Below are positions 39,843 to 60,810 of a stretch of DNA of 64,000 bases, one piece after another. Position numbers and translations under genes: made by a program. The DNA comes from a virus: the IMG/VR virus record IMGVR_UViG_3300027708_000023; one strand, given 5' to 3'. The notes below the pieces were generated by a model, which searched no databases, was not told where the DNA came from, and saw nothing but the letters and a program-made list of their open reading frames with translations. The stretch's first letter is position 1. Each line of letters starts with the position of its first letter.

Positions 39843-39880
39843 ATTTTACACTAATCGGCAAGCTTGTCAAGGGGTCTTGA
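39843..39880 (-). promoter_or_regulatory. Dual promoter: TTGACA-N16-TAAAAT plus TCAA-N17-GCCGAT
   Basis: Read directly upstream of rIIB. Confidence 0.7.
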
Positions 39881-39891
39881 GAAATTTCTGA

Positions 39892-42570
39892 CTACTTGAT
39901 CAAACTACTCAACTGAATCTTAAATAGGTCAATATTTTCCTGGCTCATCTGCTCGACCCAATCCCTACTCTGCTTTCCATAGTATGAGCGATCTTCAATG
40001 ATAGGATTCTGATTAGACTTAAGATCTACCAGATTGCCTGTTACTTGATGATTTCCCATAATGACCTTGAGCATAGGATTCTTGTCTACCTCAGTCTTAA
40101 TCTTTTCTCTAATCTCAGAGATTTTCCATGTTTTAATATCTTGAGTAGAAGTTCCACGAATAATTTTGAGATAGCTCTCTACCTCATCTTCTTGACCACT
40201 ATACAAGTAGCCAGAAATCATTCTTGTCAAGGTATTATAAGCCAAGTTAGCATTACGAATCTCTTTACCGTCAACATCTTCGATCCCAGCCTCTTTCATA
40301 AGTTTAGAGATATGGGAAAGATATTCTGTTTGACTGAACCGAGCAATATTAAAAGGACTAAGATGAACAGTATTAGCAAAGAACTCTGTGAGGATAGTTT
40401 TATTCAAGCAATCTACAAGAGTCTTGTTATTAATAAACTTGTCATAATCTAGACCAAAAATATTCAGAATATGAAACATAAACTGCTTATCTGTTGTTCC
40501 GTGCTGATAATATCTGTATCCACCACCACTCTTCTCTTCTGTTGCATAATCCTTCTTGCAATATTCAACAAGCTTGTTGATAGAGCCAAGATTCTTAAAG
40601 TGCTTTTGTGTTACAATTTTGAGTTGACGCTTCAAAAAATCATTGAAGCTAACAAGATTATAGCCATCCTTCTCAAGCTTTTTAATGAAAGCTGTTTTGA
40701 TAGCATAAATCTTACTATTACCAACCAAGTCCTTGACTATGCTCTTCAAAGTATCTTCTTGGAGAGTTTTAGTAATGCTACCGATCTCTGGACAACCAGA
40801 CTCAGACTCAGTTCCATATCTCAGCATGGGAACATAAACAATCTCATCTTGTTCCAGAAAATTCTCTAGCTGTTCTTCTGAAAGAATTCTCAGATGCGTA
40901 GCATCATTGTAAGGATTTGTAATCTGCTTACTGTCCTTGTCATAACCGTGAATAAAGAATACATCTTGGTCACTAACACTACCATTAGAATTTCTATTAT
41001 AAGACTTTCTTGGGCCAGAACTTTGTGTCAGATGCTTATAGTCTGAAACCTTGAGCAGATTTTCAGCCCCTACATCTTCGATCAGTTGATCAAAACCCTC
41101 ATTGCTTTTTGTATGATCCTTAGTGTCGATCATCAGATAAGCAAAGCAATCGTTCGCATTACAAAACCTTGTAAGAATCTTCTTGGCAGTTTCTTCACCC
41201 TTAACATCACACACAAAGAAACTCATCTTACCCTTCTTCTTCTGGTTATTCCAATAATAGGAACCCTTACCAGTAAGAGTTTCATGATGGATTCTGTCTG
41301 TCAGAGCAACTTGGCGGCGAGAACGATAGCCAGCAGTCTTATAATTAAAAACGTACAGACTCTTGCCAGCCGGAATTTTATATTCCAGATCGTTGCCAGA
41401 GTTGATGGGATGATCTTTACCCTTGGGATCAGTCCAAGTAGCACCAACACCCCAGCCGCCAGCCAATTCATTCATAGTATAGTATGAAGTAATTGCCTCT
41501 ACCTTATTCTGGGCAGACTTAATTTTCTTGGAGAATTCTTCCTTCATCTCCATATAGATTTCTTGAGTCTTTTTACGCAGAGTCTTGATAACATCCTTGG
41601 TATACTGCAAACCTTCACGGGAAACGTCCATTTCCAATTGTCCGATACCAAAATCAAGCTCAAGATACAGACCGGAGTTAAGAATCTCTCCCACAAAGCT
41701 CTTCCAAGAATCAATATCTGCTTTCTGAAAAGCCCTATTCCACTTCTGAATATGATCGGGCATCTCATCCTTCTCTTGCCCAACAATCTGTGCGGTCTGA
41801 ACAGGGTACGCAATATTACCCATGATAGCTACGATACCACTATCAATTCGATGATAACCATTAGGGAAATAACTATTATCATTATTGAGCCTGCAAACCC
41901 TCCAACCTTCACCACTAATGATGATATTGGTGTTGCTATACTTATGATCTTGAAGATTATTTCCGATACCACCTTCAATAATGGGTTTCATGCGAAAATA
42001 GTGGAAGATTCTCTTAGCCTTGTCGGTAAACTCTTGAAAGTCATGCTGCTTAACAGCGAAACTAATCTCAAGACCATTAGGCTCAGACGTATCTGAAGTA
42101 TTGAAAAGATTCAGAGTAGGAACACCACTCTCATCAATCGCAGCAATATAGGTATACTTCTTACCATTATAGTATGATGCAGTAGTAAAACTCTTTGTAT
42201 AGGCAAATGGACTCTTAGACCCTAGACCAAGACAACCAACAAAATCATTACTATCGTTCTTGTTAGATGCACCATAAGTTGTATACAAGTCCTCCATATC
42301 GGCCTGACTAAGACCAGTACCATAATCTCTCACCACAAAAGTGGGATTAGCAGCAGTGGGCAAAGTCACCTTAAAGGGGTTCTTATTCCCGGCAGAGATA
42401 TGACTATCATAAGCATTAGTAGAAAGCTCACGAATCGCAGCCATAACCTTATCAGAGTAAAGAGAGTCTGAAAGGATTTTAAACATTTTGCTCGTCTGAG
42501 CAATGTTAAACTGATTCCTGCTTGTAACACCAACACTATGCGTCTCAATCGTCCTATCTGCCAACTTCAT
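39892..42570 (-). CDS. rIIA: rIIA-like protein (GHKL/Hsp90-like ATPase N-terminus)
   Basis: ILSDSLYSDK, RELSTNAYDSH, RDYGTGLS, GCLGLGSKS; adjacent to rIIB. Confidence 0.9.
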   Translation of the reverse strand: MKLADRTIETHSVGVTSRNQFNIAQTSKMFKILSDSLYSDKVMAAIRELSTNAYDSHISAGNKNPFKVTLPTAANPTFVVRDYGTGLSQADMEDLYTTYGASNKNDSNDFVGCLGLGSKSPFAYTKSFTTASYYNGKKYTYIAAIDESGVPTLNLFNTSDTSEPNGLEISFAVKQHDFQEFTDKAKRIFHYFRMKPIIEGGIGNNLQDHKYSNTNIIISGEGWRVCRLNNDNSYFPNGYHRIDSGIVAIMGNIAYPVQTAQIVGQEKDEMPDHIQKWNRAFQKADIDSWKSFVGEILNSGLYLELDFGIGQLEMDVSREGLQYTKDVIKTLRKKTQEIYMEMKEEFSKKIKSAQNKVEAITSYYTMNELAGGWGVGATWTDPKGKDHPINSGNDLEYKIPAGKSLYVFNYKTAGYRSRRQVALTDRIHHETLTGKGSYYWNNQKKKGKMSFFVCDVKGEETAKKILTRFCNANDCFAYLMIDTKDHTKSNEGFDQLIEDVGAENLLKVSDYKHLTQSSGPRKSYNRNSNGSVSDQDVFFIHGYDKDSKQITNPYNDATHLRILSEEQLENFLEQDEIVYVPMLRYGTESESGCPEIGSITKTLQEDTLKSIVKDLVGNSKIYAIKTAFIKKLEKDGYNLVSFNDFLKRQLKIVTQKHFKNLGSINKLVEYCKKDYATEEKSGGGYRYYQHGTTDKQFMFHILNIFGLDYDKFINNKTLVDCLNKTILTEFFANTVHLSPFNIARFSQTEYLSHISKLMKEAGIEDVDGKEIRNANLAYNTLTRMISGYLYSGQEDEVESYLKIIRGTSTQDIKTWKISEIREKIKTEVDKNPMLKVIMGNHQVTGNLVDLKSNQNPIIEDRSYYGKQSRDWVEQMSQENIDLFKIQLSSLIK

Positions 42571-42610
42571 CTTATTTCTCCAAAAGTGTTATCGTTCCTG
42601 TGATGGCCCA

Positions 42611-42639
42611 AGTATATCATCGGCAAACCGTCTTGTCAA
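42611..42639 (-). promoter_or_regulatory. Promoter TTGACA-N17-TATACT with embedded GCCGAT
   Basis: Upstream of rIIA. Confidence 0.7.
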
Positions 42640-42887
42640 GCTCCAGTTTTCTTTTCTTGTCTGTCGGCTATTATTTTAAAGCCTATAGCTATGTCTATCA
42701 GACCCAAAACTTTTAAAAAGACCACAGGCAACGTGAATGTCATTCCTCCAACAAATATGCAGAGAAGTCCCATAATCCAGACAACAAGCTTTGGCATCCA
42801 AGAGAATAATGATAAGAGGTAACTTAATGGCCCGATAATTAGCACAGATAAAAAAATAATTGTTACTAGTAGAGCTAAACTAGCCAT
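42636..42887 (-). CDS. Small multi-pass membrane protein
   Basis: Three hydrophobic segments. Confidence 0.7.
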   Translation of the reverse strand: MASLALLVTIIFLSVLIIGPLSYLLSLFSWMPKLVVWIMGLLCIFVGGMTFTLPVVFLKVLGLIDIAIGFKIIADRQEKKTGA

Positions 42888-43201
42888 TAGTATTGATCTT
42901 CTTCATTATCTTCTGGCTCATAATCTTCCTTTTGGTCATAAGGAGTCCAATCTTCATTCTCTTCTTCGTCGTCAATATCTGAGTCATCCATATCATCCAT
43001 ATCAGAAATTAGAATAGTGAATGTATTTAAAAGATCTATAGCTTGTTCGATTTTATTTTCTAAGACCTTCATCTTATTTTCGATATTTTTAATACCCTTT
43101 TTTACTTCAAGAATATCTTTAGTTAAATGGGTATCCATATTATGAATTTCCTTATTGCTTTTCATTACCTCTCTGATTACATCATCAATATTTTTAGACA
43201 T
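42887..43201 (-). CDS. Coiled-coil protein with acidic tail
   Basis: Heptad pattern; GAGG RBS. Confidence 0.7.
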   Translation of the reverse strand: MSKNIDDVIREVMKSNKEIHNMDTHLTKDILEVKKGIKNIENKMKVLENKIEQAIDLLNTFTILISDMDDMDDSDIDDEEENEDWTPYDQKEDYEPEDNEEDQY

Positions 43202-43211
43202 TTTGGCCTCT

Positions 43212-43577
43212 TTATTTTAGGCGTTTGTATTCTTTAATATCACCATTCTCAAGCATCTTCTTATCTTCATAACCTTCTGCCACTCGACGATAATATTCTT
43301 GCTTGATATTTTCTAATACACCAGTAATCACAGCAATCTTAGGGTATGAAACATCCCCCATAACACCCCCTAAAATACGACTAAAAGCATAATTAATGTC
43401 TCCACAAATATCAAGTAATTCTTGATTCGATATTCCTCTATTCTGAGGATTAGACCAAGGATTTTTAATATTGTCATTTGGAACATTGTTTTTCAGACAA
43501 TTTACCATAACATCTATACAATCATCCAAACCTTTTCTATGATCTTCTTTAATATATGGCATTTTAAATTCCTTCAC
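43212..43577 (-). CDS. Conserved phage protein (DUF6899-like)
   Basis: MPYIK...GDINY...GVLENIKQEYYRR...YEDKK..NGD. Confidence 0.7.
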   Translation of the reverse strand: MKEFKMPYIKEDHRKGLDDCIDVMVNCLKNNVPNDNIKNPWSNPQNRGISNQELLDICGDINYAFSRILGGVMGDVSYPKIAVITGVLENIKQEYYRRVAEGYEDKKMLENGDIKEYKRLK

Positions 43578-44088
43578 ACTTACATTTATATCTTAAACAA
43601 TATGAACACTTTGGGCCAGGATCAGAGTTCCCAAAATAATTAGCATAACCATCCCAAGTCTCCTTGCCCGTATCAATACAAACCAATTTCTTTTTTCCTT
43701 CTCTTATAATATAGCCAATATTTAACGAATGGCAGTCCCAAAATTTTAACTTTGTTTTATCGTAAATAGCATCGACCAGCCTTTGTATTTTCCATGATTG
43801 TATATTTACATTAGTGGATTTAGCCAATTCAGTAATATATCCCCACCCACTTATTTGATTAGTAAAAAGTGGCTCGTAACCCATCTTGCATAATTCAGAA
43901 CATACTTTGGGAGCAAGATCATGCTTGCTTAACTTAATCTGAATTTTTCTGGCATATTCTGCCCTAGACTTGGAGATAAATTCTTTAAAGCCTAAAAACG
44001 GTTGGTTAGATATTTTGTATAGAGTACAATAACCACCATCTTCATGATAGTAGTCTGATAGATCAATCTTATATTTAGAATTTACCAT
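43564..44088 (-). CDS. Minimal protein-kinase-like protein
   Basis: GGYCTLY, GFKEF, APKV, ITE, DCHSLN (catalytic loop), IDTG (DFG-like). Confidence 0.65.
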   Translation of the reverse strand: MVNSKYKIDLSDYYHEDGGYCTLYKISNQPFLGFKEFISKSRAEYARKIQIKLSKHDLAPKVCSELCKMGYEPLFTNQISGWGYITELAKSTNVNIQSWKIQRLVDAIYDKTKLKFWDCHSLNIGYIIREGKKKLVCIDTGKETWDGYANYFGNSDPGPKCSYCLRYKCKCEGI

Positions 44089-44089
44089 A

Positions 44090-44407
44090 TCAATAAGAGA
44101 TAATGTCTGGAATTTCGCCAGTAAGATTGTAGAGAAATTCTTTGGCCTTGTCTAGAGTATAAAATTCACCAAGAAAAATAGACTTGTATTCAGCATCGTG
44201 GGAGTATCTTTCTCCATAGATTTGATAATAAGGCTCATCAAGACCTTCTTCTTCTGAATCTAGAAAGTGTTCAGCACTCCTAATCTCATCTATATAAGAC
44301 CCACCCTCATAGTCGCTGAACTCTCGCACAGTAACCAATAAGAAATATTCTATGGGTGATTTAGGATTATTATTCTTAACCCTACCATTACACAAACTAT
44401 TGCTCAT
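44090..44407 (-). CDS. Hypothetical protein
   Basis: Packed ORF. Confidence 0.65.
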   Translation of the reverse strand: MSNSLCNGRVKNNNPKSPIEYFLLVTVREFSDYEGGSYIDEIRSAEHFLDSEEEGLDEPYYQIYGERYSHDAEYKSIFLGEFYTLDKAKEFLYNLTGEIPDIISY

Positions 44408-44418
44408 GATTTTTCCTA

Positions 44419-44649
44419 TTAAGACTCAAGGGAATTTTTTAAAGCTTGCATCTGTTGAGATATTTTTAGATACTCATTAGTTTGCTGAACAGCAAATTCA
44501 TTAGCTCTATAAACTTCTGCTGCCCATTCTTTATTCTTATCTCTTAGTTTTTTAAGTTCGTCTTTGGCATTTTGAACAAAGAAAAGATCAGCACCAGCAC
44601 TCCATGCAAAATCAATAATAGCTTCAAGAGGATCAGAATTTTTATTCAT
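44419..44649 (-). CDS. Hypothetical protein
   Basis: Packed ORF. Confidence 0.6.
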   Translation of the reverse strand: MNKNSDPLEAIIDFAWSAGADLFFVQNAKDELKKLRDKNKEWAAEVYRANEFAVQQTNEYLKISQQMQALKNSLES

Positions 44650-44651
44650 AT

Positions 44652-44882
44652 TTATATCCTACGATTTTTAAGTTGTTCTATTTCTCTTTCCAACTTAGCT
44701 ACTCTTTCGTATATATCATAGTTAGCTAATCGTGGCAAATCTTTTGCTGGAGTTTTGCCGTCTCCAATTCTGGTATCCCATAATTTAGCAACACAATCAT
44801 ACTCGTATAAAAATAACTCACCAAGCTTGGGAATAAGATCACAATCCTTCTTGGCTTTCGGCAGACTAAAAGATCCATTCAT
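44652..44882 (-). CDS. Hypothetical protein
   Basis: PKLGE...RIGDGKT...LP resembles the fibre-associated KIGDG motif. Confidence 0.6.
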   Translation of the reverse strand: MNGSFSLPKAKKDCDLIPKLGELFLYEYDCVAKLWDTRIGDGKTPAKDLPRLANYDIYERVAKLEREIEQLKNRRI

Positions 44883-45079
44883 TTTAATACAGTAATTTCT
44901 GCTCCCTTGAATTCAGGCTTATAATAACCAGTCATACTATCTTTCTGATAAGTTTCTTCAACGATAAATTTAATATCACAGTCTGGAGCTTCAACACCAA
45001 CTTCTGTAAGATATCTCTCAATAGCTTCTCTAATATCGTCAGGAGTTAAAGTAATATGTTTTCTATCGTGAATTTTCAT
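44879..45079 (-). CDS. Hypothetical protein
   Basis: Coupled ORF. Confidence 0.6.
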   Translation of the reverse strand: MKIHDRKHITLTPDDIREAIERYLTEVGVEAPDCDIKFIVEETYQKDSMTGYYKPEFKGAEITVLK

Positions 45080-45081
45080 AA

Positions 45082-45312: not shown

Positions 45313-45341
45313 AAGAGTAAACTCATTTTAAAAAGATGAAG

Positions 45342-45414
45342 TAGGAGTGGTGAGAATCGAACTCACACTGGATGGATTTTAAGTCCATTGTCTCTGCCGT
45401 TGGACTACACTCCC
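45342..45414 (-). tRNA. tRNA-Leu(UAA), short variable loop, no encoded CCA
   Basis: GGGAGTG/CACTCCT acceptor; ATGGA-CTTAAAA-TCCAT anticodon arm; GTGAG-TTCGATT-CTCAC T-arm. Confidence 0.9.
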
Positions 45415-45866: not shown

Positions 45867-46484
45867 TTACCTCGCGTTGTTCCTTCGATTATACAGCATT
45901 GTATCGTCAATGTCAATGGGCGACCTTGAAATTTTTTTCGTTCTCGCCAGAAATTGTTGTTGAACGTCTTTAAAACTCCAAGGAGTACCAAACTGTACCC
46001 CATCTCTTTTATTATCCACGCCTACATCAAGCGTGAGGCTTCCAGAAGCAACGTCCTCACGATGCAGTCTGCCATGAACATGACCATAAAGCATCCAGCT
46101 TTTCCTATAGCTACCAGACCAACTTCTCATAGGATAATGACACATGAATATTTTTTGATTAATATACAGAATCATTTTTTGGTCAGAAACACTAGAGAAT
46201 CCACTAGTGAATCTAGTTGGTTCATCATGATTACCAAGAATAATATGAACATTCTCACAAACTATTCTTTCTCTATAAGATAGAGCAGTTCCACCCTTAT
46301 GGCAGAAATCTCCTATAATATAAAGAATATCGTTTTGTCCAACAGTTTCGTTTATAGAAGAAATAATTTTAGCATCCATTTCTCCACCATCAGAGAATGG
46401 ACGATTACAATATCCTATGATATTCCGATGTCCAAGATGAAGATCAGCAGTAAAAAATACTTTCTGACCGACTATCTTATCCAT
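45867..46484 (-). CDS. Calcineurin-like metallophosphoesterase
   Basis: ADLHLGH, IGDF, GNHD, CHYP, GHVH. Confidence 0.9.
   Translation of the reverse strand: MDKIVGQKVFFTADLHLGHRNIIGYCNRPFSDGGEMDAKIISSINETVGQNDILYIIGDFCHKGGTALSYRERIVCENVHIILGNHDEPTRFTSGFSSVSDQKMILYINQKIFMCHYPMRSWSGSYRKSWMLYGHVHGRLHREDVASGSLTLDVGVDNKRDGVQFGTPWSFKDVQQQFLARTKKISRSPIDIDDTMLYNRRNNAR
45888..45929 (-). promoter_or_regulatory. Dual promoter: TTGACA-N17-TATAAT plus TCAA-N17-GACGATA
   Basis: Read directly; overlaps the 3' end of the phosphoesterase ORF. Confidence 0.7.
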
Positions 46485-46770: not shown

Positions 46771-47064
46771 TCATGATTTTTCCTTTGGTGAGTATAGAGT
46801 AACCTTAATTATTATATACCCGTCCTGCTCACTGTCAATATTTTGTATTGAGGATATTCTTCCCTTACCCAAGAAAGAGTCGCCAACTAATAAGAATGGC
46901 CCACCATCTAGATTAGCAGAAGTTATTACTGATATGTCTGATTGACAACCAAATCTAGCCCAATCGCTTTCTCCCTCAATTAAATATTCGTATTCGCCAA
47001 CTTGTGTTATTATTCTTTTATTTTTGTCTTTAGATCGTAAGCACTGGCTCATTAAAAGCCTCAC
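46771..47064 (-). CDS. Hypothetical protein
   Basis: LDGGPFL motif; packed ORF. Confidence 0.6.
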   Translation of the reverse strand: MRLLMSQCLRSKDKNKRIITQVGEYEYLIEGESDWARFGCQSDISVITSANLDGGPFLLVGDSFLGKGRISSIQNIDSEQDGYIIIKVTLYSPKEKS

Positions 47065-49037: not shown

Positions 49038-49080
49038 ATTCTACACTAAGCGTATCGTCTTGTCAAGTAGTCAGTCTTTA
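49038..49080 (-). promoter_or_regulatory. Dual promoter: TTGACA-N17-TAGAAT plus TAAA-N17-GACGATA
   Basis: Read directly. Confidence 0.7.
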
Positions 49081-50615: not shown

Positions 50616-50804
50616 TCATGTTCTTTTTTTGCGTTTTACTTGATTCTTGAGCTTTGTCTTAGTCTCAAGTTCTTTGTTTTTTTGTTGTGCTAGGTTATCT
50701 AATGCTCCTATGCGACGGGACTCTTCAAAACCATATTCTTGGATCATTCTTCGACTTATTTTAAAATCAGCGCTTTTACTATATTTATTTGGTTGATATT
50801 TCAT
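50616..50804 (-). CDS. Small basic protein
   Basis: Coupled to the ligase stop. Confidence 0.5.
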   Translation of the reverse strand: MKYQPNKYSKSADFKISRRMIQEYGFEESRRIGALDNLAQQKNKELETKTKLKNQVKRKKRT

Positions 50805-52108
50805 TAAATGTCCCTTTCTTCTCCATGAAGAATCTTGAAGGTTGGAAATCGCAGACTAATGCCACCTTTCTCGTTCTCTGTCTCCTCGAAATATTGTACA
50901 GTTATTTGTTTTCCAAGAATTTTCTTAGGATTCTTATAAAACTCCTGTCTTTGTTCGATACTAAAACCAGACCCTACTCTTACAGTATGACCCTTATGTT
51001 GAATCATAACACAACTCAACATAGTCTCCTCACACTCTGCACCATCCTTAACATAACGGAATGGCCCCATTTCTGTATCCAAAACTTCGTATTCGTCATC
51101 AAAGAACGATTTATATTTCAATAGGTCTTTGGATCGCTTGCCTTTATATGGAGCGTCAGATCGAAGCATAAGCCCCTCCCAGCCATTCTGAGTAGATTGT
51201 TCAACAAACTCTTGGAAATGACTTTCATTCTTAATTAGAGATTGCTCCAACAATGTCAAGCATGGACATTCATTCTTTTTCATAACTTCTGTAAGATTCT
51301 TCAGTCTAATACCAAAAGGTCTATTATATTCTCCCTTCTGACTATAAAACTCATCATGAGTAATCATATCAAAAATCTTGTAAGAAGGATTAGGAATAGT
51401 ATGGTCTTTCTTACGAAGTTCCTTCATTACTCCTTGGAAATCCTCGTTACCATCTTCATCAACCAGACAAAGCTCACCATCAAGAACTACATTAGTAAGT
51501 CCCAGAGCTTTAATGCCGTCGCCAACAACACCAAGAGTATCAAAGATTTTTCCCGTGCGGGAATAGAAGGTAGTATTGCCATTAGTATCAACAATACCAA
51601 TACATCTAGCACCGTCGATCTTTCTGCTAACATACCAACCATCCTTCCAGTCTACAATCTTAGGAACATACTTATCTGCTAGAGCAACACTAAATGTTGG
51701 GATATGATCTGGAATAGCCTTATTGATAAGTTTATCTCCAGCACGAGTTTTCAAATCTTTATCAATGACACAGTGAATGAGTTCCTCATACTCTGAATGA
51801 TTATCAATAAATGTGTTTACGGCAGCAATAGCATCATGTCCAGTAATAGCACGACCTTTAAGATCATCCAAAAGATCAAAAAAGTTTTTGTAACAATTTT
51901 TTGCTTTCAAATGATTCTTCTTCTTGAGATTATCACTGGTAACATTGTACTGCCAAAGAGGGTGATAGGTATATAGCAAAATCTTTTTGATAAACTTAGC
52001 TCCATCATCATTGGATGAAGTATAATCTTCAATAATTCCAACCTTATCAAGAGTGCTACTAGTTGCTTTCAGATCACGAACAAAACCATTAAGATGCTCA
52101 AACGACAT
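50804..52108 (-). CDS. lig: ATP-dependent DNA ligase
   Basis: KIDGAR (motif I), LDGEL, IFD, EGLMLR, LLKYK, VGSG, LRFP; start at MSFEHL. Confidence 0.95.
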   Translation of the reverse strand: MSFEHLNGFVRDLKATSSTLDKVGIIEDYTSSNDDGAKFIKKILLYTYHPLWQYNVTSDNLKKKNHLKAKNCYKNFFDLLDDLKGRAITGHDAIAAVNTFIDNHSEYEELIHCVIDKDLKTRAGDKLINKAIPDHIPTFSVALADKYVPKIVDWKDGWYVSRKIDGARCIGIVDTNGNTTFYSRTGKIFDTLGVVGDGIKALGLTNVVLDGELCLVDEDGNEDFQGVMKELRKKDHTIPNPSYKIFDMITHDEFYSQKGEYNRPFGIRLKNLTEVMKKNECPCLTLLEQSLIKNESHFQEFVEQSTQNGWEGLMLRSDAPYKGKRSKDLLKYKSFFDDEYEVLDTEMGPFRYVKDGAECEETMLSCVMIQHKGHTVRVGSGFSIEQRQEFYKNPKKILGKQITVQYFEETENEKGGISLRFPTFKILHGEERDI

Positions 52109-52133
52109 TTCTAATTTCTCCTGTGTTTTCCAA

Positions 52134-52190
52134 ATTCTACCATAGGGTAGTCCTCTTGTCAAGTATCGGTTATTTGCGATTTGGCCTTGA
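52134..52190 (-). promoter_or_regulatory. Dual promoter: TCAA-N16-ACCGATA upstream of TTGACA-N17-TAGAAT
   Basis: Read directly upstream of the ligase. Confidence 0.7.
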
Positions 52191-52511: not shown

Positions 52512-53184
52512 ATTTAGTCTTATTTGCATGGGGTATCTCGTTAGTATTAAACTCAATGCCGCACTCAGCAAAAAAACTTTTAAATTTTTCGATAGTGTCT
52601 TTCTCTATATCAAATACCAGCAGATCTTTTGGTCTGTCTTTAAAGTAAGTCTGGACAAAATCTATGTGATCATTCCAGCTTTCTCTCCAATGATATTCTA
52701 TTTGTTCATCATTAGAACATCCAAAAAACTCTTTGTGTAATTCTTTGTATGGAACTCTGGGATGTAATCTGTCTAGTTTATCTTTATTTTTTTTAACAGA
52801 TTCCAATCCCATTAAGTGGGACATTCTACTATTAATCCAACCGTCTACGTCTCTAACATTTAGAATAAATTTACTGTTAGGGTATTGTTCGTCTAAAATT
52901 GGAATGTGGTTTTTGTCATACATAAATATCCAATTAGTAGAACCATCATCTTCTACAAACTGACATTCCATATCAGAGTAAAAACCAAAGTGTTCGTATT
53001 TGCCAGATAAAAGAGGTTTTGACTCTCTCTCGTTCATAGCCATAGAATATCCCAAAAATCCACTATCCCAATGGCAGCATTTGATTCTTGGAACCGAATA
53101 ATCCTGAAACATTATATTGATAGAATTTGTACCACACTTATTAAATCCTATCTGGAATATTTTGTTGAATTTTCTCATAGTCAT
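52504..53184 (-). CDS. Sulfotransferase-family protein
   Basis: IFQIGFNKCGTNS, YPNSKFILNVRDVDGWINS, YFKDRPKDLL, PHAN. Confidence 0.8.
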   Translation of the reverse strand: MTMRKFNKIFQIGFNKCGTNSINIMFQDYSVPRIKCCHWDSGFLGYSMAMNERESKPLLSGKYEHFGFYSDMECQFVEDDGSTNWIFMYDKNHIPILDEQYPNSKFILNVRDVDGWINSRMSHLMGLESVKKNKDKLDRLHPRVPYKELHKEFFGCSNDEQIEYHWRESWNDHIDFVQTYFKDRPKDLLVFDIEKDTIEKFKSFFAECGIEFNTNEIPHANKTKYA

Positions 53185-54428
53185 TATAAAAGTTCTTTAA
53201 TGAGTTTGCCACTATTAGCGATTTTCATTGGCCTGCCATTTTTAGCAGTAAAATTTGTTTCTAGAGATATTCCTAGTGATTTAAGAACACTTGCCATCAA
53301 ATCCTGTGACGTATATGGTTCAGTAATTACTTCCTTGCCATCGCTATTAGTTTCTCCAACAATTGTGCCACTGGTAAATCCTGCTCCACCAACAACGACA
53401 CTCCAACTTTTAGCCCAATGATCTCGACCTCCATTAGCATTGATATTTGGGGTTCTTCCAAATTCTCCCATACAAATAATAGCAGTGTCTTGTAGTAGAC
53501 CTCTATCATTTAGGTCACTTATTAAGGCACTCATAGCTTTATCCAATTCTGGTAGTTTCTGATCTTGTAGAGTCTTAAAAATATCAGTATGATTATCCCA
53601 GCCACCAAGATCAACTTCAATAAATGGAATACCCTTCTCTACTAATCTTCGTGCCATCAAACAACCACGACCAAATCCAGTATTGCCATATCTTTCTTGA
53701 ACTTCTTTTGGTTCTTTAGATACTTTGAATACATCCATCTGAGAACTGGTCATTAGTTTAACTGTTTTAGTCAAAAGTTTAGAGTGGTCAGAAGCATAGT
53801 CTCCGCGTTTTTCATTGACAAATTTATCTTCAATAGTTTTAAGCATACGAAGTCTTTGATCTAATCTAGATTGATCTATATCCATAGTAAGATCACGAAC
53901 AGTTCCATTAGAATTAACTACAAATGGAGAATAAGATGTTCCTAAAAATCCAGCACCAATACTGGCTCCTCCAATACTAACAAACGGAGGAATATCAATC
54001 TGTGGTATGCTAGACATTAATTCATGAGAGATTACTGAACCATAACTAGGATGTTCAATATTAGGATTGGGAACATATCCTGTGTGCATATAGTAGCGAC
54101 CCCTAGTATGATCTGCTTCTCTTGTACTCATTGAGCGAACAATATTCATGTGGTGCATTTGTTGTGCCATTAACGGCAGATGTTCACATATTTGAATTCC
54201 ATCAGCACTAGTAGATATTGGCTTAAAAATTCCACCAGTAGCAGCACCCGGCTTTAAATCCCACAAATCAATAGTGCTTGGGCCTCCACTCATCCATAAA
54301 AGAATAGCACTCTTATTTCTTTTCTTTAAGTCATTAGCATTAGCTAAAATAGACTGTGTAAAAAAAGACGAAGATGCTGCTATTGATGATGCGGCAGCAC
54401 AATGATTGATAAAATGGCGACGATTCAT
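53184..54428 (-). CDS. DUF1501-family protein with TAT-like signal
   Basis: MNRRHF signal; LWMSGGPSTIDLWDLKP; RYG..FGRGCLMARRLVE.G; GGWDNH; GEFGRTP; GRDHW. Confidence 0.9.
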   Translation of the reverse strand: MNRRHFINHCAAASSIAASSSFFTQSILANANDLKKRNKSAILLWMSGGPSTIDLWDLKPGAATGGIFKPISTSADGIQICEHLPLMAQQMHHMNIVRSMSTREADHTRGRYYMHTGYVPNPNIEHPSYGSVISHELMSSIPQIDIPPFVSIGGASIGAGFLGTSYSPFVVNSNGTVRDLTMDIDQSRLDQRLRMLKTIEDKFVNEKRGDYASDHSKLLTKTVKLMTSSQMDVFKVSKEPKEVQERYGNTGFGRGCLMARRLVEKGIPFIEVDLGGWDNHTDIFKTLQDQKLPELDKAMSALISDLNDRGLLQDTAIICMGEFGRTPNINANGGRDHWAKSWSVVVGGAGFTSGTIVGETNSDGKEVITEPYTSQDLMASVLKSLGISLETNFTAKNGRPMKIANSGKLIKELL

Positions 54429-54984: not shown

Positions 54985-55005
54985 CAGAATCCTTCCTGTT
55001 TAAAG

Positions 55006-55081
55006 TAGGGCGTGTCTGAGTCGAACAGACCTATGAACACCTTATAAGAGTGTCGGATGCAACCGGCTTACCTTACGCCCC
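55006..55081 (-). tRNA. tRNA-Ile(UAU)
   Basis: GGGGCGT/ACGCCCT acceptor; ACACT-CTTATAA-GGTGT anticodon arm; T-loop TTCGACT; weak D-stem. Confidence 0.85.
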
Positions 55082-55091: not shown

Positions 55092-55128
55092 ATTGTATCC
55101 TATCGACCAACTACTGTCAAGACTTTTA
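55092..55128 (-). promoter_or_regulatory. Dual promoter: TTGACA-N17-TACAAT plus TAAA-N17-GTCGATA
   Basis: Directly upstream of tRNA-Ile and tmRNA. Confidence 0.7.
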
Positions 55129-55281: not shown

Positions 55282-55283
55282 AA

Positions 55284-55637
55284 TTACTTTGCAATATTAA
55301 AGATTTCATTTGATTCTGGATGCCAAAAAAACATCTCGTTAGATTCATCGTCCCAAGCACATTCTATCTTTCCAGAGGATGCTACTAGGCTCAAGCTTGA
55401 GTTATAAATCCATTTTTTGATTGCATCACAAAGAAGATTATAGTTCTCATCACTAATAATAAATTCGTCATTATATCCTGGCTCAATATATTCTCTAACC
55501 AAATTTTCTGTTTGAGACAAAGAAATCAAATTATCTATTTGATAATAGTATTCTCTAGGAAAAACCCACACCACGTTTTTTCTAATGCTTTTAGTAAAAA
55601 GTTTTAGATTCTTAATCTTGATATAATTACTCATCAT
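55284..55637 (-). CDS. Hypothetical protein, tandem paralog
   Basis: GKIECAWDDESNEMFFW; start at MMSNYIK. Confidence 0.75.
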   Translation of the reverse strand: MMSNYIKIKNLKLFTKSIRKNVVWVFPREYYYQIDNLISLSQTENLVREYIEPGYNDEFIISDENYNLLCDAIKKWIYNSSLSLVASSGKIECAWDDESNEMFFWHPESNEIFNIAK

Positions 55638-55998
55638 TGTCCTTTGAGGGTTTGGCAGAAATTTCTGTCTTATCTTTATTAGCCAACCAGAATACCATTT
55701 CATTAGATTCGTCATCCCATGCACACTCTATAAAACCTTTTGCCGCCAGCTTGGAAAGACCAACCTCATAAAGTTGATTTCTAATTCCCTCAAATATCTC
55801 ATTAAAGATATCTTCGTTTATGATATAGTTTCCTTCCTCATCCAGCCCAAGATTATTCTTTTTGACCATATTGATCACTTGGGGAATGGTAATGAATTCA
55901 TCCAAATTCTCTGTATAATTTTCTTCAAAAGAAGATGCTGCTCCATCCCTCATGGCTTTTGCATAACCTTCCAAATCCATAACACTATAGCTTTCCAT
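55627..55998 (-). CDS. Hypothetical protein, tandem paralog
   Basis: GFIECAWDDESNEMVFW; start at MESYSV. Confidence 0.75.
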   Translation of the reverse strand: MESYSVMDLEGYAKAMRDGAASSFEENYTENLDEFITIPQVINMVKKNNLGLDEEGNYIINEDIFNEIFEGIRNQLYEVGLSKLAAKGFIECAWDDESNEMVFWLANKDKTEISAKPSKDNDE

Positions 55999-56011
55999 TA
56001 TTAGTTCCCAA

Positions 56012-56293
56012 TTAGAGATATTTTGTAGTACCCTTGCCGCTATCATTAGTTTTACACCGCTCCAACAGATTGTCAATAGTGTTCTGCAAACTATACTCGC
56101 CTCTATTTAGCCACTTTTTATCCTCATAGAGAGCAGTGGTAATTTGAGGCAGATAAAACTGGATCGCTCTTTCGAATTCTTCTGGAAAATAAGTTTTCAG
56201 AATACGCTCAATATGATAGAGACTATCTACTATTTTATCTCTATTATTAAGCAGATTATTGATTTGGTCTTTTTGTTCTTGATTAAGAGACAT
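56012..56293 (-). CDS. Hypothetical protein
   Basis: Coupled ORF. Confidence 0.65.
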   Translation of the reverse strand: MSLNQEQKDQINNLLNNRDKIVDSLYHIERILKTYFPEEFERAIQFYLPQITTALYEDKKWLNRGEYSLQNTIDNLLERCKTNDSGKGTTKYL

Positions 56294-56697
56294 TACGCCT
56301 CCACTCTTGGCTTGAGTTTCATAAGCTTATGTTTAATCTTCCAAATATTGGTTTCTTTGTTGTGGATATCTGGCCCCATATAGATATGACAGAATCCTGC
56401 GTGTTTGTCGATACCCCATGCCTTAATTCCCTCATGGTCAATACCCTCTACAACAAAACGTCCTCTATAACCCATTGGGACAAACTCTCCTTTGGATACA
56501 AAGTATGGGCCTCCACCAACCCTAATACGATCTCCCTTAACCAATTCTTTCCAATTAAAATCTCTAATAATCTTAGTGTTCTTTGCTTCTTTGCTCTTTG
56601 CCTTAAAGACGAACGGAGCATTGCACTTCGGACACATATAAGCTCGCGGGCCTGTGGTAGCTCCACATTTATCACAAGTTTTTTGACCCTTACCCAT
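56293..56697 (-). CDS. Zn-ribbon protein
   Basis: CDKCG..GPRAYMCPKC; AGGAG RBS. Confidence 0.75.
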   Translation of the reverse strand: MGKGQKTCDKCGATTGPRAYMCPKCNAPFVFKAKSKEAKNTKIIRDFNWKELVKGDRIRVGGGPYFVSKGEFVPMGYRGRFVVEGIDHEGIKAWGIDKHAGFCHIYMGPDIHNKETNIWKIKHKLMKLKPRVEA

Positions 56698-56731
56698 TTT
56701 TTTCTCCTGTGTTTGTTGACGTTACACCCTA

Positions 56732-56772
56732 AGTATAACTCAGTTATCGGCAGTGTCAAGAGGGATTCTTTA
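56732..56772 (-). promoter_or_regulatory. Dual promoter: TTGACA-N16-TATACT plus TAAA-N17-GCCGATAA
   Basis: Both sigma28-type boxes are perfect in this copy. Confidence 0.75.
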
Positions 56773-56797
56773 GTGGTTCTGAGATTTTTTCAAAAAC

Positions 56798-57484
56798 CTA
56801 CAGAATATCCACATAATTTATTTTAATGTGACCATCTTTAATTGATATATATGAACAAGGATGATCTGTCCAACATCCGCTATTATAGTAGTTTGTTGAT
56901 CCAGAAACATCTGTAGTAGCCAGATGAGTATGTCCACAAATTATTGAGTCGCATTTCTTAATAAGACAATAAGATTTAGCCCTATCACAAACTTCTTGAG
57001 AACATCTTAAAAAGGTTTTACTACTACGTTTAGCAAGATTGGAGAAGTATAGTCCAGCATAAATCTGTAGCCATCGGTAAACATAGTCAGCTACTTTAGT
57101 TAGTCTAGGATATCTGGAGATAACATTGTCAAAAATATCCCCATGCAAAATTAGTATTTTTTCATCTCCACTAATAAAACTATATTCATTCATAAAATCG
57201 ACCCCAATCAAATGACTCACCATATCAGCAGGCCCATCATGATTGCCACTAATCCAGATAACTTTAATAGTGTCAGAGATTTTACGGATTTGAGATAATA
57301 TTTTCCAGTGGTCTTTTTTAAGTTTACGAAAATCCCAGCTATCAAATAAATCACCATTAATAATTAGAGTGTCAGTATCAGTCTCTCCAAGTTCAATCCT
57401 AGATAAGAAAGATGCCAAAGTTTTAGCTTGACAAACATTACTCCCTAAATGAATATCGCTAATAACTATAGCATCAAAAGTCAT
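56798..57484 (-). CDS. LpxH-like metallophosphoesterase (UDP-2,3-diacylglucosamine hydrolase family)
   Basis: ISDIHLG, GDLFD, GNHD, HGD.FD, GHTH, NSGCW. Confidence 0.8.
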   Translation of the reverse strand: MTFDAIVISDIHLGSNVCQAKTLASFLSRIELGETDTDTLIINGDLFDSWDFRKLKKDHWKILSQIRKISDTIKVIWISGNHDGPADMVSHLIGVDFMNEYSFISGDEKILILHGDIFDNVISRYPRLTKVADYVYRWLQIYAGLYFSNLAKRSSKTFLRCSQEVCDRAKSYCLIKKCDSIICGHTHLATTDVSGSTNYYNSGCWTDHPCSYISIKDGHIKINYVDIL

Positions 57485-57888
57485 ATCACATAGCCCTGTT
57501 TAGTTGCTTCATTATCACAAAGAGTTCTAACCCACGCATGAATAGGATACCCATTTTCATCAAGTTTTTTATATCGAACCTTTCCTTTTTCTCCGGTAAC
57601 TTCACAAGTTATATAGCTCATGCTTTCAGCCATCTCTATTGCTCCGCGAATAAACTCATCTGCACCATAACAGTAAGCTCTTAAACCTCCAAATTTTTCT
57701 TTAATTTGACTCCAATAAAAGAATTCTAGTGGCTCGTTAAGTCTTCGTTTATAGTCAATACGATTATTTACAATATAACAAAGCCTAGACAGAATCTCGT
57801 ACCAACCGTCATCACACTCTAAATATTTGAGATTTTTAAACTGTTCTGAGTATTGTTCAATTAGTTTATTGGATAGTTCAGGACTCAT
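57481..57888 (-). CDS. Conserved phage hypothetical protein
   Basis: ECDDGW, QIKEKFGGLR, CEVTG, WVRTLC. Confidence 0.75.
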   Translation of the reverse strand: MSPELSNKLIEQYSEQFKNLKYLECDDGWYEILSRLCYIVNNRIDYKRRLNEPLEFFYWSQIKEKFGGLRAYCYGADEFIRGAIEMAESMSYITCEVTGEKGKVRYKKLDENGYPIHAWVRTLCDNEATKQGYVI

Positions 57889-58150
57889 TGTAGTTTACCT
57901 TGTGTATAATTCGTGTTCCAAGATGAGCATTGCTAAGTTCTGCACCGTCTTTCATGGACTCGTTGCAAATTCTTTCAAATTCTTTGCGGCCAATCTTTCG
58001 ACCGTCAATAATATTTTCGTCCAGATACTTTTGGGTTAGAGCTTCTGGATGGTCAATAAGTACGGTATCATAAGCGTGTTCAAGATTTTTGGCCTCAATA
58101 ACATACTTATGACGAAACAAAGAAACTGTACTAACTTCAAAAAGTGGCAT
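57878..58150 (-). CDS. Hypothetical protein
   Basis: AAGGAG RBS. Confidence 0.65.
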   Translation of the reverse strand: MPLFEVSTVSLFRHKYVIEAKNLEHAYDTVLIDHPEALTQKYLDENIIDGRKIGRKEFERICNESMKDGAELSNAHLGTRIIHKVNYNES

Positions 58151-58160
58151 AATAATCTCC

Positions 58161-58382
58161 TTAGTCTATGTTGATATTATATTCAGTAACTAATCTGTGA
58201 AATTCTGATCTAATCTTATCAAGAGCATCACCAGCATCGGTAAAATCATTGCTATATTTCTGCCAAGATCGTAATTGTTGAGAAAAATCCCACAACATTC
58301 TTTTAGCATCACTAGCTTGGATAGCAGTATCAAATTCGTATTGTTCTTCTGGTAGTTTAAATTTTAAAGTTGCTATTGGCAT
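58161..58382 (-). CDS. Hypothetical phage protein
   Basis: ATLKFKLPEEQYEF motif. Confidence 0.65.
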   Translation of the reverse strand: MPIATLKFKLPEEQYEFDTAIQASDAKRMLWDFSQQLRSWQKYSNDFTDAGDALDKIRSEFHRLVTEYNINID

Positions 58383-58385
58383 ATA

Positions 58386-58640
58386 TCACCACATCTTTTT
58401 AGTTCTGTTAGCATCTGTTTTCTTATCCGAATCTAGAATAATAGTTAAAACATCATTTCTAAAAGTTGTCATATAGCTTTGAGAAATTTTTCTCTTCAGC
58501 AAACCATCTTCTTCGATTTGAGTATAAACATTAATTCGATAGTAGTCATGGAATACATTAATAACTTTTGTCATCAAATGATTCTTTGGCTTACTAACTT
58601 GTTTAAAAAGCAAACCTTCAATTTCATAATCACTAATCAT
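58386..58640 (-). CDS. Hypothetical protein
   Basis: NVFHDYYRINVY motif; coupled ORF. Confidence 0.65.
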   Translation of the reverse strand: MISDYEIEGLLFKQVSKPKNHLMTKVINVFHDYYRINVYTQIEEDGLLKRKISQSYMTTFRNDVLTIILDSDKKTDANRTKKMW

Positions 58641-58855
58641 CTAGCTCTCCTATTTGCTCTGTCTAAAATCCTAATAGTTTCTTTTGCATTGCTGGGAACC
58701 ATAACCAGACTTGGTGCGGTCTTATGTCCCCAATCCATAAACCCCACAGCTTTTTTTTCTGCTGAACATTCCTTACAAAGTATATTTCTATTTGTTTCAA
58801 CAAGAAATTCGTATCTCTCAACACCAACGCAATTTTTGCAATAAATACAGTTCAT
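58637..58855 (-). CDS. TraR/DksA-like C4 zinc-finger protein
   Basis: CIYC...ER...LCKEC. Confidence 0.6.
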   Translation of the reverse strand: MNCIYCKNCVGVERYEFLVETNRNILCKECSAEKKAVGFMDWGHKTAPSLVMVPSNAKETIRILDRANRRAR

Positions 58856-58889
58856 CGTGTCTCCAAAGAATAGGCTGGCAACGCTCTCT

Positions 58890-58931
58890 TTTATACCATG
58901 CTTATCGGCATTGTCAAGCGTTCAATCTTAA
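58890..58931 (-). promoter_or_regulatory. Dual promoter: TTGACA-N16-TATAAA plus TAAG-N17-GCCGATAA
   Basis: Read directly; overlaps the 3' end of the deaminase ORF. Confidence 0.65.
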
Positions 58932-59346
58932 TGGTTTTGGTGGGACAAACAAAGTTTCCATTATCGTCGCTATAATAAACTTCATTAAGTCCAACAGCAC
59001 TTAATAATTTGGAACAATTAACACAAGGCTTGCTTCCAAGAATTAATCCCTGTCTGTTAATTCGTAAGACACATATGCTCCAATTAGGATCAATGGAATT
59101 ATAGCGATCAAGTAATTTAGAAATAAGATGAGATTCACTATGAACATAAGGATACTCCAAGTATTTGGGAATATTAAATCTTTTGCCTATTCTGAAAGCT
59201 TTTGTACTCATCTTAATAGGATTATTCTGAGCAAACTCAATCATTCTTGTTCCATCAAAAGCTGAACAGTAATGATAGCAACGAACTAAGGAATTGGGAT
59301 TCCAGTTTTCGTATGCTTTCTTGATGGTTTTATGAATTATCTTCAC
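58891..59346 (-). CDS. Cytidine/deoxycytidylate deaminase-fold protein
   Basis: HSE (HxE) and SKPCVNC (PCxxC). Confidence 0.75.
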   Translation of the reverse strand: MKIIHKTIKKAYENWNPNSLVRCYHYCSAFDGTRMIEFAQNNPIKMSTKAFRIGKRFNIPKYLEYPYVHSESHLISKLLDRYNSIDPNWSICVLRINRQGLILGSKPCVNCSKLLSAVGLNEVYYSDDNGNFVCPTKTIKIERLTMPISMV

Positions 59347-59524
59347 GATTAATTTTATCCAATGTTTTATTTATCTCATCCAAATCAGATTCAACATACA
59401 TATCATCATTATCTTGACCAGAAATATTCCATTCGGGCTTGTCTGATGGTAGTAGTCTATATCTAGGTGGTTCTTTGGGTGTTGGTGTTTCTGGACTAAG
59501 TTTAATTCTTTGTGGTTCTTTCAT
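59330..59524 (-). CDS. Small hypothetical protein
   Basis: AGGAG RBS. Confidence 0.55.
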   Translation of the reverse strand: MKEPQRIKLSPETPTPKEPPRYRLLPSDKPEWNISGQDNDDMYVESDLDEINKTLDKINREDNS

Positions 59525-59533
59525 AAAAGTCTC

Positions 59534-59683
59534 CTACTTAGAAGCTAACATATACAATCCAACATTAGCTGCCGCATAACCAAGATACGCAATAAACATA
59601 CCATAGTTATTATGTAGATAACCTTGTTCTATGGCTATATAAAGATATATTATGCCTGTAATGAGAATAAGGTTAGCTGACAT
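59534..59683 (-). CDS. Small two-TM protein (not in ORF track)
   Basis: MSANLILITGIIYLYIAIEQ...YAAANVGLYMLASK. Confidence 0.6.
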   Translation of the reverse strand: MSANLILITGIIYLYIAIEQGYLHNNYGMFIAYLGYAAANVGLYMLASK

Positions 59684-59684
59684 T

Positions 59685-59831
59685 TTAGTTCTTTTCTATG
59701 GGAATATAGCGACTACCATCTGGAGCAATTTGTTCCTGACCAATAGTAATCTTCTTATCTTCCTTTAGCAAGTTAATGATTGCTTGAGTATTAACATTAG
59801 GACTAATTAAAATTGCACCAATCTGAGCCAT
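59685..59831 (-). CDS. Small hypothetical protein (not in ORF track)
   Basis: MAQIGAILISPNVNTQ...; fills the gap exactly. Confidence 0.55.
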   Translation of the reverse strand: MAQIGAILISPNVNTQAIINLLKEDKKITIGQEQIAPDGSRYIPIEKN

Positions 59832-59841
59832 AATTATTTCC

Positions 59842-60753
59842 TTATTTAGATAGTGTAGTTAAATTTTCATTATATTCTGCAATAGCGAGGTCTTTGCCTT
59901 TGACCTCAAAATCAATATCAAATTCTAGACCATAAGTATCAAAGGGTTGAGTAGGAACATCGCAATGCGCCCGTGGATTATTACCGGGGCGACTCTCACT
60001 ATAATGAAATAATGGAGTGGTTTGCCAAGTATCCCAACACATATTAATTGCTTCACGTTCTGTAAGACCATTTGGATGACATTTATGATGCAGATAATCG
60101 AAGCATATTGGAATACGAGTTATCGGATGGAAAATATCTACTAGTTCTTTTACACTCCAGCAGTTAAGTTTGTCATCGTTTTCGATTGTGATGCGGGCTT
60201 GACAATTATTGTCCAGTTTCTTGAAGTTGTTGTAGAATCTATGAGCAATTTCTTCTCTGGTTCCATTATTATTATGAACATGAAAATTCATTGGCGATCT
60301 ACGATCTGCTGGAAGTCCAATTCTGTCAAAGAAACTGCTGTAGAAGTTAAGTTCTGTAATGGTTTTTTCGACAACTTTTTCACTGAGGCTTGATAAACTA
60401 TTAAATTCACTAGGATGAGCAGAAACCCGTACATTAGTAGAGGTAATAGTTTCCGAAAGATTATCAAACTCGTCTTGTATTTCGTCATAGTTAGGCAAAT
60501 CCCCAAGATCCACATTAGCCTCATCATAAGTAATAAGAGGAAAAATGTCGCTACTAACACGATAAACATAATTATTTTCTGCACAAAATTGGATAGTCTT
60601 GTTAGTCACCATCAGATTATTTTGGATTCGTGATCCAAGAATTTCTAGTGCCTCTTCTCGCGGCAAAGAATTGAAACGCTTAAAAGTCATGGTCTGATGA
60701 CCGAAACCTTGTTCTTTAAGTTTGAGCGAAATGCAACACAGTCCGATACGCAT
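59842..60753 (-). CDS. uvsE: UV damage endonuclease UvsE/UVDE
   Basis: RIGLCC, YRVSSDIFP, RVSAHP, IENDDK, FDYLHH, FHYSE, RAH.D, EVKGKD. Confidence 0.92.
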   Translation of the reverse strand: MRIGLCCISLKLKEQGFGHQTMTFKRFNSLPREEALEILGSRIQNNLMVTNKTIQFCAENNYVYRVSSDIFPLITYDEANVDLGDLPNYDEIQDEFDNLSETITSTNVRVSAHPSEFNSLSSLSEKVVEKTITELNFYSSFFDRIGLPADRRSPMNFHVHNNNGTREEIAHRFYNNFKKLDNNCQARITIENDDKLNCWSVKELVDIFHPITRIPICFDYLHHKCHPNGLTEREAINMCWDTWQTTPLFHYSESRPGNNPRAHCDVPTQPFDTYGLEFDIDFEVKGKDLAIAEYNENLTTLSK

Positions 60754-60771
60754 AAATTCTCCTTTGATTCG

Positions 60772-60810
60772 ATTATACTCTAGTATCGGCAGTTGTCAAC
60801 TGCTTCTTGA
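60772..60810 (-). promoter_or_regulatory. Dual promoter: TTGACA-N16-TATAAT plus TCAA-N16-GCCGATA
   Basis: Directly upstream of uvsE. Confidence 0.75.

Follow-up and report, generated by a model that had tools for sequence, protein, structure and literature searches.

A sigma28/FliA-type motif accompanies sigma70-type early promoters in a family of uncultured lake phages

The window analyzed here, a 64,000-nucleotide stretch of IMG/VR virus record IMGVR_UViG_3300027708_000023, comes from an uncultured lake phage with a genome of ~230 kb. Sigma70-type promoters on its minus strand are accompanied by a second bipartite motif, termed unit 2 (T-N-AAG-N15/16(17)-G-N-CGATA). Sequence comparisons suggest that promoters carrying unit 2 are probably, though by no means certainly, overlapping promoters for two host holoenzymes, one with sigma70 and the other with FliA (sigma28). 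Each composite early promoter would combine a near-consensus sigma70/RpoD promoter and a sigma28/FliA-type promoter within the same 40 to 60 bp, so that either host holoenzyme, depending on which one is available when the phage infects, would switch on the same early genes.

The window has 35% G+C, with nearly all genes on the minus strand. No close relative by DNA was found in the GenBank phage collection, and IMG/VR yielded 341 related contigs, three of which are complete genomes of 228 to 238 kb with direct terminal repeats. These three complete relatives (G001, G002, and G003) are the whole-genome basis for the motif counts given below.

RESULTS

Sigma70-type promoters of the early region

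The pattern TTGACA-N15-18-TANANT had 11 matches in the window compared to 2.0 expected, a number reached in 0 of 100 shuffles, and nine of the 11 were minus-strand sites between 39.8 and 60.8 kb. An earlier note on this DNA had listed nine minus-strand sites of the sigma70 type. Eight of these match the pattern, and the ninth (58890) has TATAAA as its −10 hexamer, as that note had claimed. Counting 58890, there are ten consensus minus-strand promoters from 39.8 to 60.8 kb, the tenth being a site at 46811-46838 that was absent from the earlier list. Many of the early −10 regions read GTGTAGAAT.

A second bipartite motif beside eight of the ten promoters

A search of the window with the pattern [TCA]AAG-N15-17-[GA]NCGAT placed unit 2 within 60 nt of eight of the ten consensus promoters (39843, 45888, 49038, 52134, 55092, 56732, 58890, and 60772); the earlier note had likewise counted eight. 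On the minus strand, 16 matches were found versus 4.1 ± 2.1 in first-order Markov simulations (maximum of 9 in 60 simulations), and the plus strand had 3. Within 39.8 to 60.9 kb, there were 12 matches versus 1.35 expected. The T(A/C)AA-N16/17-GNCGAT spacing described in the earlier note is therefore enriched over controls, on the minus strand and in the early region.

The distance between the two boxes also emerged from an unbiased scan of all spacings from N6 to N28. In the window, N15, N16, and N17 had 4, 4, and 2 occurrences, with no other bin above 2, and in a complete relative the same bins had 14, 13, and 7 occurrences over a background of mostly 2 to 4 per bin (maximum of 7). This peak was present on the coding strand only, the opposite strand being flat. 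All eight unit 2 sites are intergenic, each preceding a minus-strand gene or a tRNA and oriented toward it. The position of GNCGATA relative to the −35 hexamer is less uniform, as it starts 1, 2, 2, 2, 3, 5, or 7 nt after TTGACA at seven sites, and at 52164-52170 it starts 14 nt before the end of TTGACA, so that the whole of unit 2 at the 52134 promoter is upstream of the sigma70 promoter.

Coordinates of all promoters and genes are collected in Table 1. Two consensus promoters are without a full unit 2. The 46811 promoter lacks unit 2 in relatives as well, where it is otherwise conserved, and at 42611, the promoter of rIIA, there is no TNAAG 15 to 17 nt upstream of GCCGAT. The composite promoter directly before tRNA-Ile(TAT) is arranged the same way in a complete relative (G001, about 178264). 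The plus-strand copy that the earlier note had placed at 24263-24290 does exist in degenerate form, but it is indistinguishable from chance. A ClpP-like protease gene and two tRNAs were also recognized in the window. The rIIB and rIIA leaders (39815-39842 and 42583-42610, minus strand), just downstream of their promoters, share the element ATCACAGG(T/A)A(T/A)CG(T/A)TAAC at about +10 to +30. This element is conserved in relatives and may be a leader RNA element or an operator.

TABLE 1 Promoters and genes of the window
Feature	Position	Strand	Elements and remarks
Composite promoter	60772..60810	-	TTGACA 60799-60794, TATAAT 60777-60772, spacer 16; TCAAG 60810-60806, N15, GCCGATA 60790-60784; offset 3 nt
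Composite promoter	58890..58931	-	TTGACA 58917-58912, TATAAA 58895-58890; TTAAG 58931-58927, N17, GCCGATAA 58909-58902
Composite promoter (example given in the earlier note)	56732..56772	-	TTGACA 56759-56754, TATACT 56737-56732; TAAAG 56772-56768, N16, GCCGATAA 56751-56744
Composite promoter of tRNA-Ile(TAT) (55005-55081)	55092..55128	-	TTGACA 55120-55115, TACAAT 55097-55092; TAAAAG 55128-55123, N15, GTCGATA 55107-55101; offset +7
Tandem promoter before DNA ligase gene	52134..52190	-	TCAAG 52190-52186, N15, ACCGATA 52170-52164; TTGACA 52162-52157, TAGAAT 52139-52134; offset −14
Composite promoter	49038..49080	-	TTGACA 49066-49061, TAGAAT 49043-49038; TAAAG 49080-49076, N16, GACGATA 49059-49053
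Sigma70 promoter without unit 2	46811..46838	-	Neither unit 2 box present
Composite promoter	45888..45929	-	TTGACA 45916-45911, TATAAT 45893-45888; TCAAG 45929-45925, N16, GACGATA 45908-45902
rIIA promoter, sigma70 type, extended −10 (TGATATACT)	42611..42639	-	GCCGAT 42624-42619 inside spacer
Composite promoter of rIIB	39843..39880	-	TTGACA 39870-39865, TAAAAT 39848-39843; TCAAG 39880-39876, N16, GCCGATT 39859-39853
Degenerate copy before glycosyltransferase genes	24264..24290	+	TCAAG-N16-TCCGACA
DUF1501 gene	53184-54428	-	342 bits
ATP-dependent DNA ligase	50804-52162
rIIA	39892-42570
rIIB	38923-39798
Sigma70-family factor	10348-10944	-

Unit 2 is an autonomous and conserved element

In the three complete relatives, AAG-N15-17-GNCGATA occurred 30, 27, and 36 times in the forward direction and 0, 4, and 1 times in reverse, with reversed-pattern controls giving 2 to 7. 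Promoter-like copies in the complete relative were confined to 161 to 229 kb, almost all of them beside a sigma70 promoter. To describe their placement, every instance in the window, in the three relatives, and at 80 loci around rIIB was collected, which gave 147 non-redundant contexts, 66 of them beside a good sigma70 promoter. The offset was taken between the end of the −35 hexamer and the point where GNCGATA begins. In 46 promoters, GNCGATA begins just after TTGACA (offset of +1 to +3). In five it lies deeper within the sigma70 spacer (+7/8), in seven it follows the −10 hexamer as TATAAT-GTCGATA and is succeeded by a purine-rich leader (+22/23), and in six non-redundant promoters of the phage family it precedes the −35 hexamer as CGATAC-TTGACA (−14), as at 52164. 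A few copies, such as one at G001 177465, are without any TTGACA.

The distance between the two boxes of unit 2 was 15 to 16 in every one of these registers, including the copy lying wholly upstream, which upholds the earlier view of the motif as an autonomous bipartite unit. The idea that unit 2 is a spacer or UP element belonging to the sigma70 promoter was rejected because the spacing is kept both wholly upstream (−14) and downstream (+22/23). The offset from TTGACA does differ between sites, as the earlier note had held, but it takes a few discrete values instead of varying continuously. This suggests that promoter cassettes were multiplied by descent, and the offsets therefore represent fewer independent events than the counts imply. 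An early-promoter subfamily with GTCGATA directly after TATAAT and a long purine-rich leader (TAAGAGAAAGAAAG...) was seen at G001 161493, 164116, and 167307, with similar promoters in G002 and G003. They form a set of repeated modules that occupies one end of the early region.

Orthologous promoters from the relatives show which positions are constrained. For three promoters with 13, 17, and 32 distinct versions, TNAAG, TTGACA, G-CGATA, and the −10 hexamer were invariant, while spacer bases and the second base of GNCGATA varied. For example, TCAAG, TTGACA, and G-CGATA never vary among 17 distinct orthologous copies of the 45888 promoter, in which spacer bases do, and the sole change in GNCGAT among 32 distinct copies of the rIIB promoter affects its degenerate second position, which is C or T. 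Unit 2 is under purifying selection, and because both boxes are invariant while the bases between them vary, these promoters consist of two superimposed constrained units.

Both boxes of unit 2 are of the sigma28 type

The consensus from the 66 non-redundant promoters is c-T-(A/C)-A-A-G-(a/t)-t ... G-(c/a/t)-C-G-A-T-A. Positions that were not forced by the search pattern were also strongly preferred: 58 of 66 promoters have T two bases before AAG, 59 have A after CGAT, and 57 have G before NCGAT. Many copies read TAAAGTTT or TCAAGTTT. For comparison, the Escherichia coli sigma28 consensus is TAAAGTTT-n11-GCCGATAA (PMC2859248), the gammaproteobacterial consensus is TNAAG-N14-GCCGATA (PMC3333780), and the solved Pseudomonas aeruginosa fliC complex has TCTAAAG at −36 to −30 and GCCGATAA at −15 to −8 (PMC12784957). 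Both boxes of unit 2 match sigma28 (TNAAG, and GNCGATA with its CGA core), in agreement with the FliA-type assignment made earlier.

The spacer of unit 2 is not the canonical one. It was N16 in 40 of the 66 promoters, N15 in 23, and N17 in 3, and N14 was at background level in the phage. The phage spacer is therefore 1 to 2 bp longer than the known FliA consensus (N15-16 versus N14), as had been stated from the window. A longer spacer has a precedent in the sigma28 promoter of Chlamydia pneumoniae hctB, which reads TNAAG-N15-GCC (PMC3333780).

Two other promoter classes were set aside. A promoter of the extracytoplasmic function (ECF) type (AAC...CGT) was raised because the sigma factor encoded by the phage scores best on a generic sigma70-ECF model, but the boxes fit sigma28 far better. 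A T4-type MotA box or gp55 late promoter was rejected, since T4 is not a near relative (rIIA about 32 to 36% identical), the sigma factor in the window has a region 4, and the motif is bipartite.

A candidate host family shares the longer spacing

The planctomycete host guessed in the earlier note finds support in the DUF1501 gene of the window, which is 77% identical to freshwater planctomycete genes. Freshwater Pirellulales, Planctomycetaceae, or Planctomycetota genomes, many of them from the same lake types as the phage contigs, account for all of its closest cellular relatives, whose protein identity over the full length reaches 77%. Despite this protein identity, the phage gene has ~35% G+C versus 46 to 70% in the host genes, a very large gap in composition. 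When 20 kb of phage DNA was compared to 151 host-family genomes for CRISPR spacers or prophage remnants, the DUF1501 gene was the only match.

A FliA/WhiG orthologue was found in five of five genomes of the candidate family, which is inferred to be the host from one shared gene, with scores of ~260 bits (224 for one copy cut at a contig end) against a cutoff of 190. The host fliA is just downstream of flhA, and the gene after it encodes a protein with an FlgM-like end. Across 41 host-family genomes, AAGTTT-N6-20-GCCGATA had 72 matches, versus about 27 for a reversed control. The spacing was N12 or N13, equivalent to TNAAG-N15/16, in 50 of the 72, and only 2 had the N11 of E. coli. A 46-genome sample across the phylum had the same longer-spacing mode in weaker form (23 of 71 matches, with 8 at N11). 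Because the candidate host family shares the spacing of the phage motif, the puzzle of the longer spacer is resolved in favor of host FliA as its reader.

The host sites precede genes and are oriented toward them, with no TTGACA box present. Orthologous genes recur among those downstream, including three encoding DUF6666 proteins, three encoding Wza-like polysaccharide export proteins, and one encoding an outer-membrane efflux-family protein. The best-conserved host site, ggtt-N-ttcaAAGTTTGsCGG-N9/10-GCCGATA, is about 600 nt upstream of mraZ, which heads the division and cell-wall cluster, in three genomes (L174, L176, L179; G019, G009, G045).

No match to PF00669 or PF00700 was found in the candidate host genomes searched for flagellin. 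In G004 to G009 and G020, the flhA-fliA-flgM-like cluster is present, yet the N- and C-terminal flagellin Pfam domains went undetected. Either the flagellin is very divergent, or the genomes are incomplete, or FliA is kept for another purpose. The earlier rationale, that reading by both sigma factors would secure expression in swarmer and sessile cells alike, is not established by these genomes, as no flagellin was detected and the host sites precede envelope and division genes instead of flagellar ones. The genes behind these sites suggest that the role of host FliA may be developmental or related to the envelope, as in Chlamydia.

DISCUSSION

A model for two host holoenzymes at one promoter

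Host FliA holoenzyme would start transcription ~15 nt downstream of the first G of GNCGATA, a distance predicted from the fliC complex because the first G of GCCGATAA is at −15 there. Measured from the sigma70 start, the predicted FliA-type start would be displaced upstream by 8 to 13 nt in the common register and by about 28 nt at 52134, whereas in the TATAAT-GTCGATA register it would be about 10 nt downstream. At the 60772 locus, for example, the predicted starts are at about 60765 (sigma70) and about 60775 (FliA type). For the other seven loci, the predicted sigma70 and FliA-type starts are, respectively, at about 58883 and 58894, 56725 and 56736, 55085 and 55092, 52127 and 52155, 49031 and 49044, 45881 and 45893, and 39836 and 39844. 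As the two promoters overlap in the common register, the holoenzymes would compete for them and not occupy them simultaneously. The restriction of unit 2 to the early region fits both holoenzymes being host components that are present at DNA entry.

Several points weigh against this model. Sigma28 promoters are said to tolerate little change of spacer in model organisms. The host assignment rests on one transferred gene, DUF1501, and the phage has 35% G+C versus 46 to 70% in host-family genomes at the loci sampled. With a looser pattern, no sigma28 spacing signal stood out clearly from background in host-family members of lower G+C. About 70% of the sites are in one register, which could reflect one ancestral cassette instead of independent placement. 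In addition, the argument from region 4.2 of the phage sigma factor, given below, covers only recognition of the −35 box and is drawn from homology.

Other candidate readers of unit 2

The earlier note had offered an alternative in which unit 2 is a middle-type promoter read by the sigma factor of the phage, so that early genes started by host sigma70 would stay transcribed once the phage factor appears. The phage protein, of about 196 amino acids, has both region 2 and region 4 and thus needs a bipartite promoter; it is the sole region-4 sigma factor detected in each of the three complete relatives, and unit 2 is the only orphan bipartite motif seen. A one-box late-type motif containing GGTGTA could belong to a separate region-2-only sigma-like protein, itself a weak match. 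The phage sigma factor is not FliA-like, however. It scores 21 to 33 bits on the FliA/WhiG model, compared to 260 for the host protein, is 31% identical to host FliA over 49 residues, and, as a profile, matches SigA/RpoS better (27 bits) than E. coli FliA (20 bits). All 997 of its homologues are in the same phage group and carry only a generic name. The P. aeruginosa sigma28 structure shows S224 and Q228 as the residues reading the −35 box, and these fit the S and Q of an S-R-V-S-Q stretch that host FliA keeps. The phage factor has REAVRQ there, within a region 4.2 helix, GVSREA(V/I)RQNIKR, that is of the sigma70/RpoS type (R-E-x-x-R-Q) and lacks the serine that reads TNAAG. The G-V-S-R-E-A-(V/I)-R-Q part of this helix is invariant in 18 diverse homologues. 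The glutamate that the phage protein has at the serine position is a feature of housekeeping sigma factors. The location of the sites also argues against a middle promoter, as unit 2 is confined to the early region, nearly always beside a sigma70 promoter, and is not found before middle or late genes. No sigma70 promoter is present in the block that contains the phage sigma gene itself, and a GGTGTA-type site precedes this gene at about 13166. Reading by the phage factor also does not predict the match with the host-family spacing. The phage factor is therefore the less likely reader, and we regard this alternative as unlikely.

We also regard as improbable that unit 2 is the binding site of a non-sigma regulator, from phage or host, that represses or modulates the sigma70 early promoters, for example in early shutoff. 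In most promoters, unit 2 shares DNA with the −35 hexamer and the spacer, and RNA polymerase would be blocked by a protein bound at this position. Such a regulator would have to explain why the site is asymmetric, why its two unlike boxes both match sigma28, and why it always points in the direction of transcription. Registers of −14, +2, and +22 would give unlike outcomes for one regulator, and the same geometry is found in host genomes upstream of genes without a TTGACA box. There is very little to recommend a further possibility, that the sites bind host FliA holoenzyme mainly as a sink, with more than 30 strong sites per replicating genome shutting off the host FliA regulon and little phage transcription resulting. 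The 27 to 36 sites per genome and a candidate-host regulon that seems to include envelope, export, and division genes would suit a sink, but all sites are just upstream of phage genes and point toward them, and a decoy would need neither property. Recognition by the two host holoenzymes thus remains the explanation we prefer.

The one-box motif, (T)GG(T/G)GTATA(A/T)(A/T), was seen on the minus strand of the window at about 54816, 47291, 13166, 8097, 2058, about 4400, and about 1430. It precedes, by 30 to 90 nt, the starts of genes that lack a TTGACA box, and it probably represents a late promoter class. At G002:C1:106698-106910 (minus strand), a 235-amino-acid frame has a weak match (E = 0.006) to region 2 of the FliA model, and this frame probably encodes a region-2-only sigma-like protein.

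Implications for phage transcription and host assignment

Phage early transcription is taught as the work of the host housekeeping sigma factor or of an injected polymerase. If the two-sigma reading is true, an early-promoter set that also carries a promoter for a host alternative sigma factor would be a new strategy, with two transcript starts predicted per locus. Literature searches, including full-text ones aimed at how phages exploit host sigma factors, brought up no account of early promoters of the sigma28 type in a phage, no description of planctomycete FliA promoters, and no phage-host culture system for planctomycetes, and we know of no promoter rules for planctomycete phages. A broader proposal, which we offer tentatively and are more inclined to doubt than to assert, is that an abundant lake jumbo-phage family wires its immediate-early genes to a developmental host sigma factor in addition to the housekeeping one and so reads the cell-cycle state of the host, in which FliA appears to control mraZ, polysaccharide export, and outer-membrane genes and not a detectable flagellin.

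The host sites provide a first sketch of a freshwater Pirellulales-like FliA-type promoter (aAAGTTT-N12/13-GCCGATA) and of the genes behind it. If the shared spacing does reflect a shared reader, lineage-specific spacing between the boxes of an alternative-sigma promoter would be a new means of matching uncultured phages with their hosts from sequence alone. As a host-range signature, promoter geometry may be of use despite a difference of 10 to 30 percentage points in base composition.

Comparison with known systems

Unit 2 is like the promoters of sigma28 factors (FliA/SigD/WhiG) in both boxes, in their order and orientation, in the invariant CGA core, and in the degenerate second base of the −10 box. 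It differs from them in its spacer (N15-16 versus N14), in overlapping a sigma70 promoter, and in the absence of a flagellar gene downstream. In Chlamydia, a member of the PVC superphylum without flagella, the hctB promoter likewise has a spacer longer than the gammaproteobacterial consensus (PMC3333780). Sigma28 drives developmental and not flagellar genes there, and the candidate host sites seem similar in this respect. Unlike the phage promoters, hctB is a cellular gene with a single promoter, and N16, the commoner spacing in the phage, is unreported there.

Transcription of one unit by two host holoenzymes also has precedents. In Salmonella and E. coli, the flgMN, flgKL, and fliDST operons have both sigma70 (class 2) and sigma28 (class 3) promoters. 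As proposed for the phage, each is one transcription unit with two promoters in the same direction, but the flagellar promoters are separate and used successively in the course of assembly, whereas those of the phage overlap physically. Among phages, T4, with its early and middle promoters, and SPO1, in which sigmaA-dependent early transcription is followed by gp28 and then gp33/34, resemble the lake phage in having strong consensus sigma70-type early promoters, additional promoter classes on the same genes, and a phage-encoded sigma factor. Their additional classes depend on phage factors or on phage-modified host sigma70, whereas the second promoter class described here looks like that for a host alternative sigma factor, which would already be there when infection begins.

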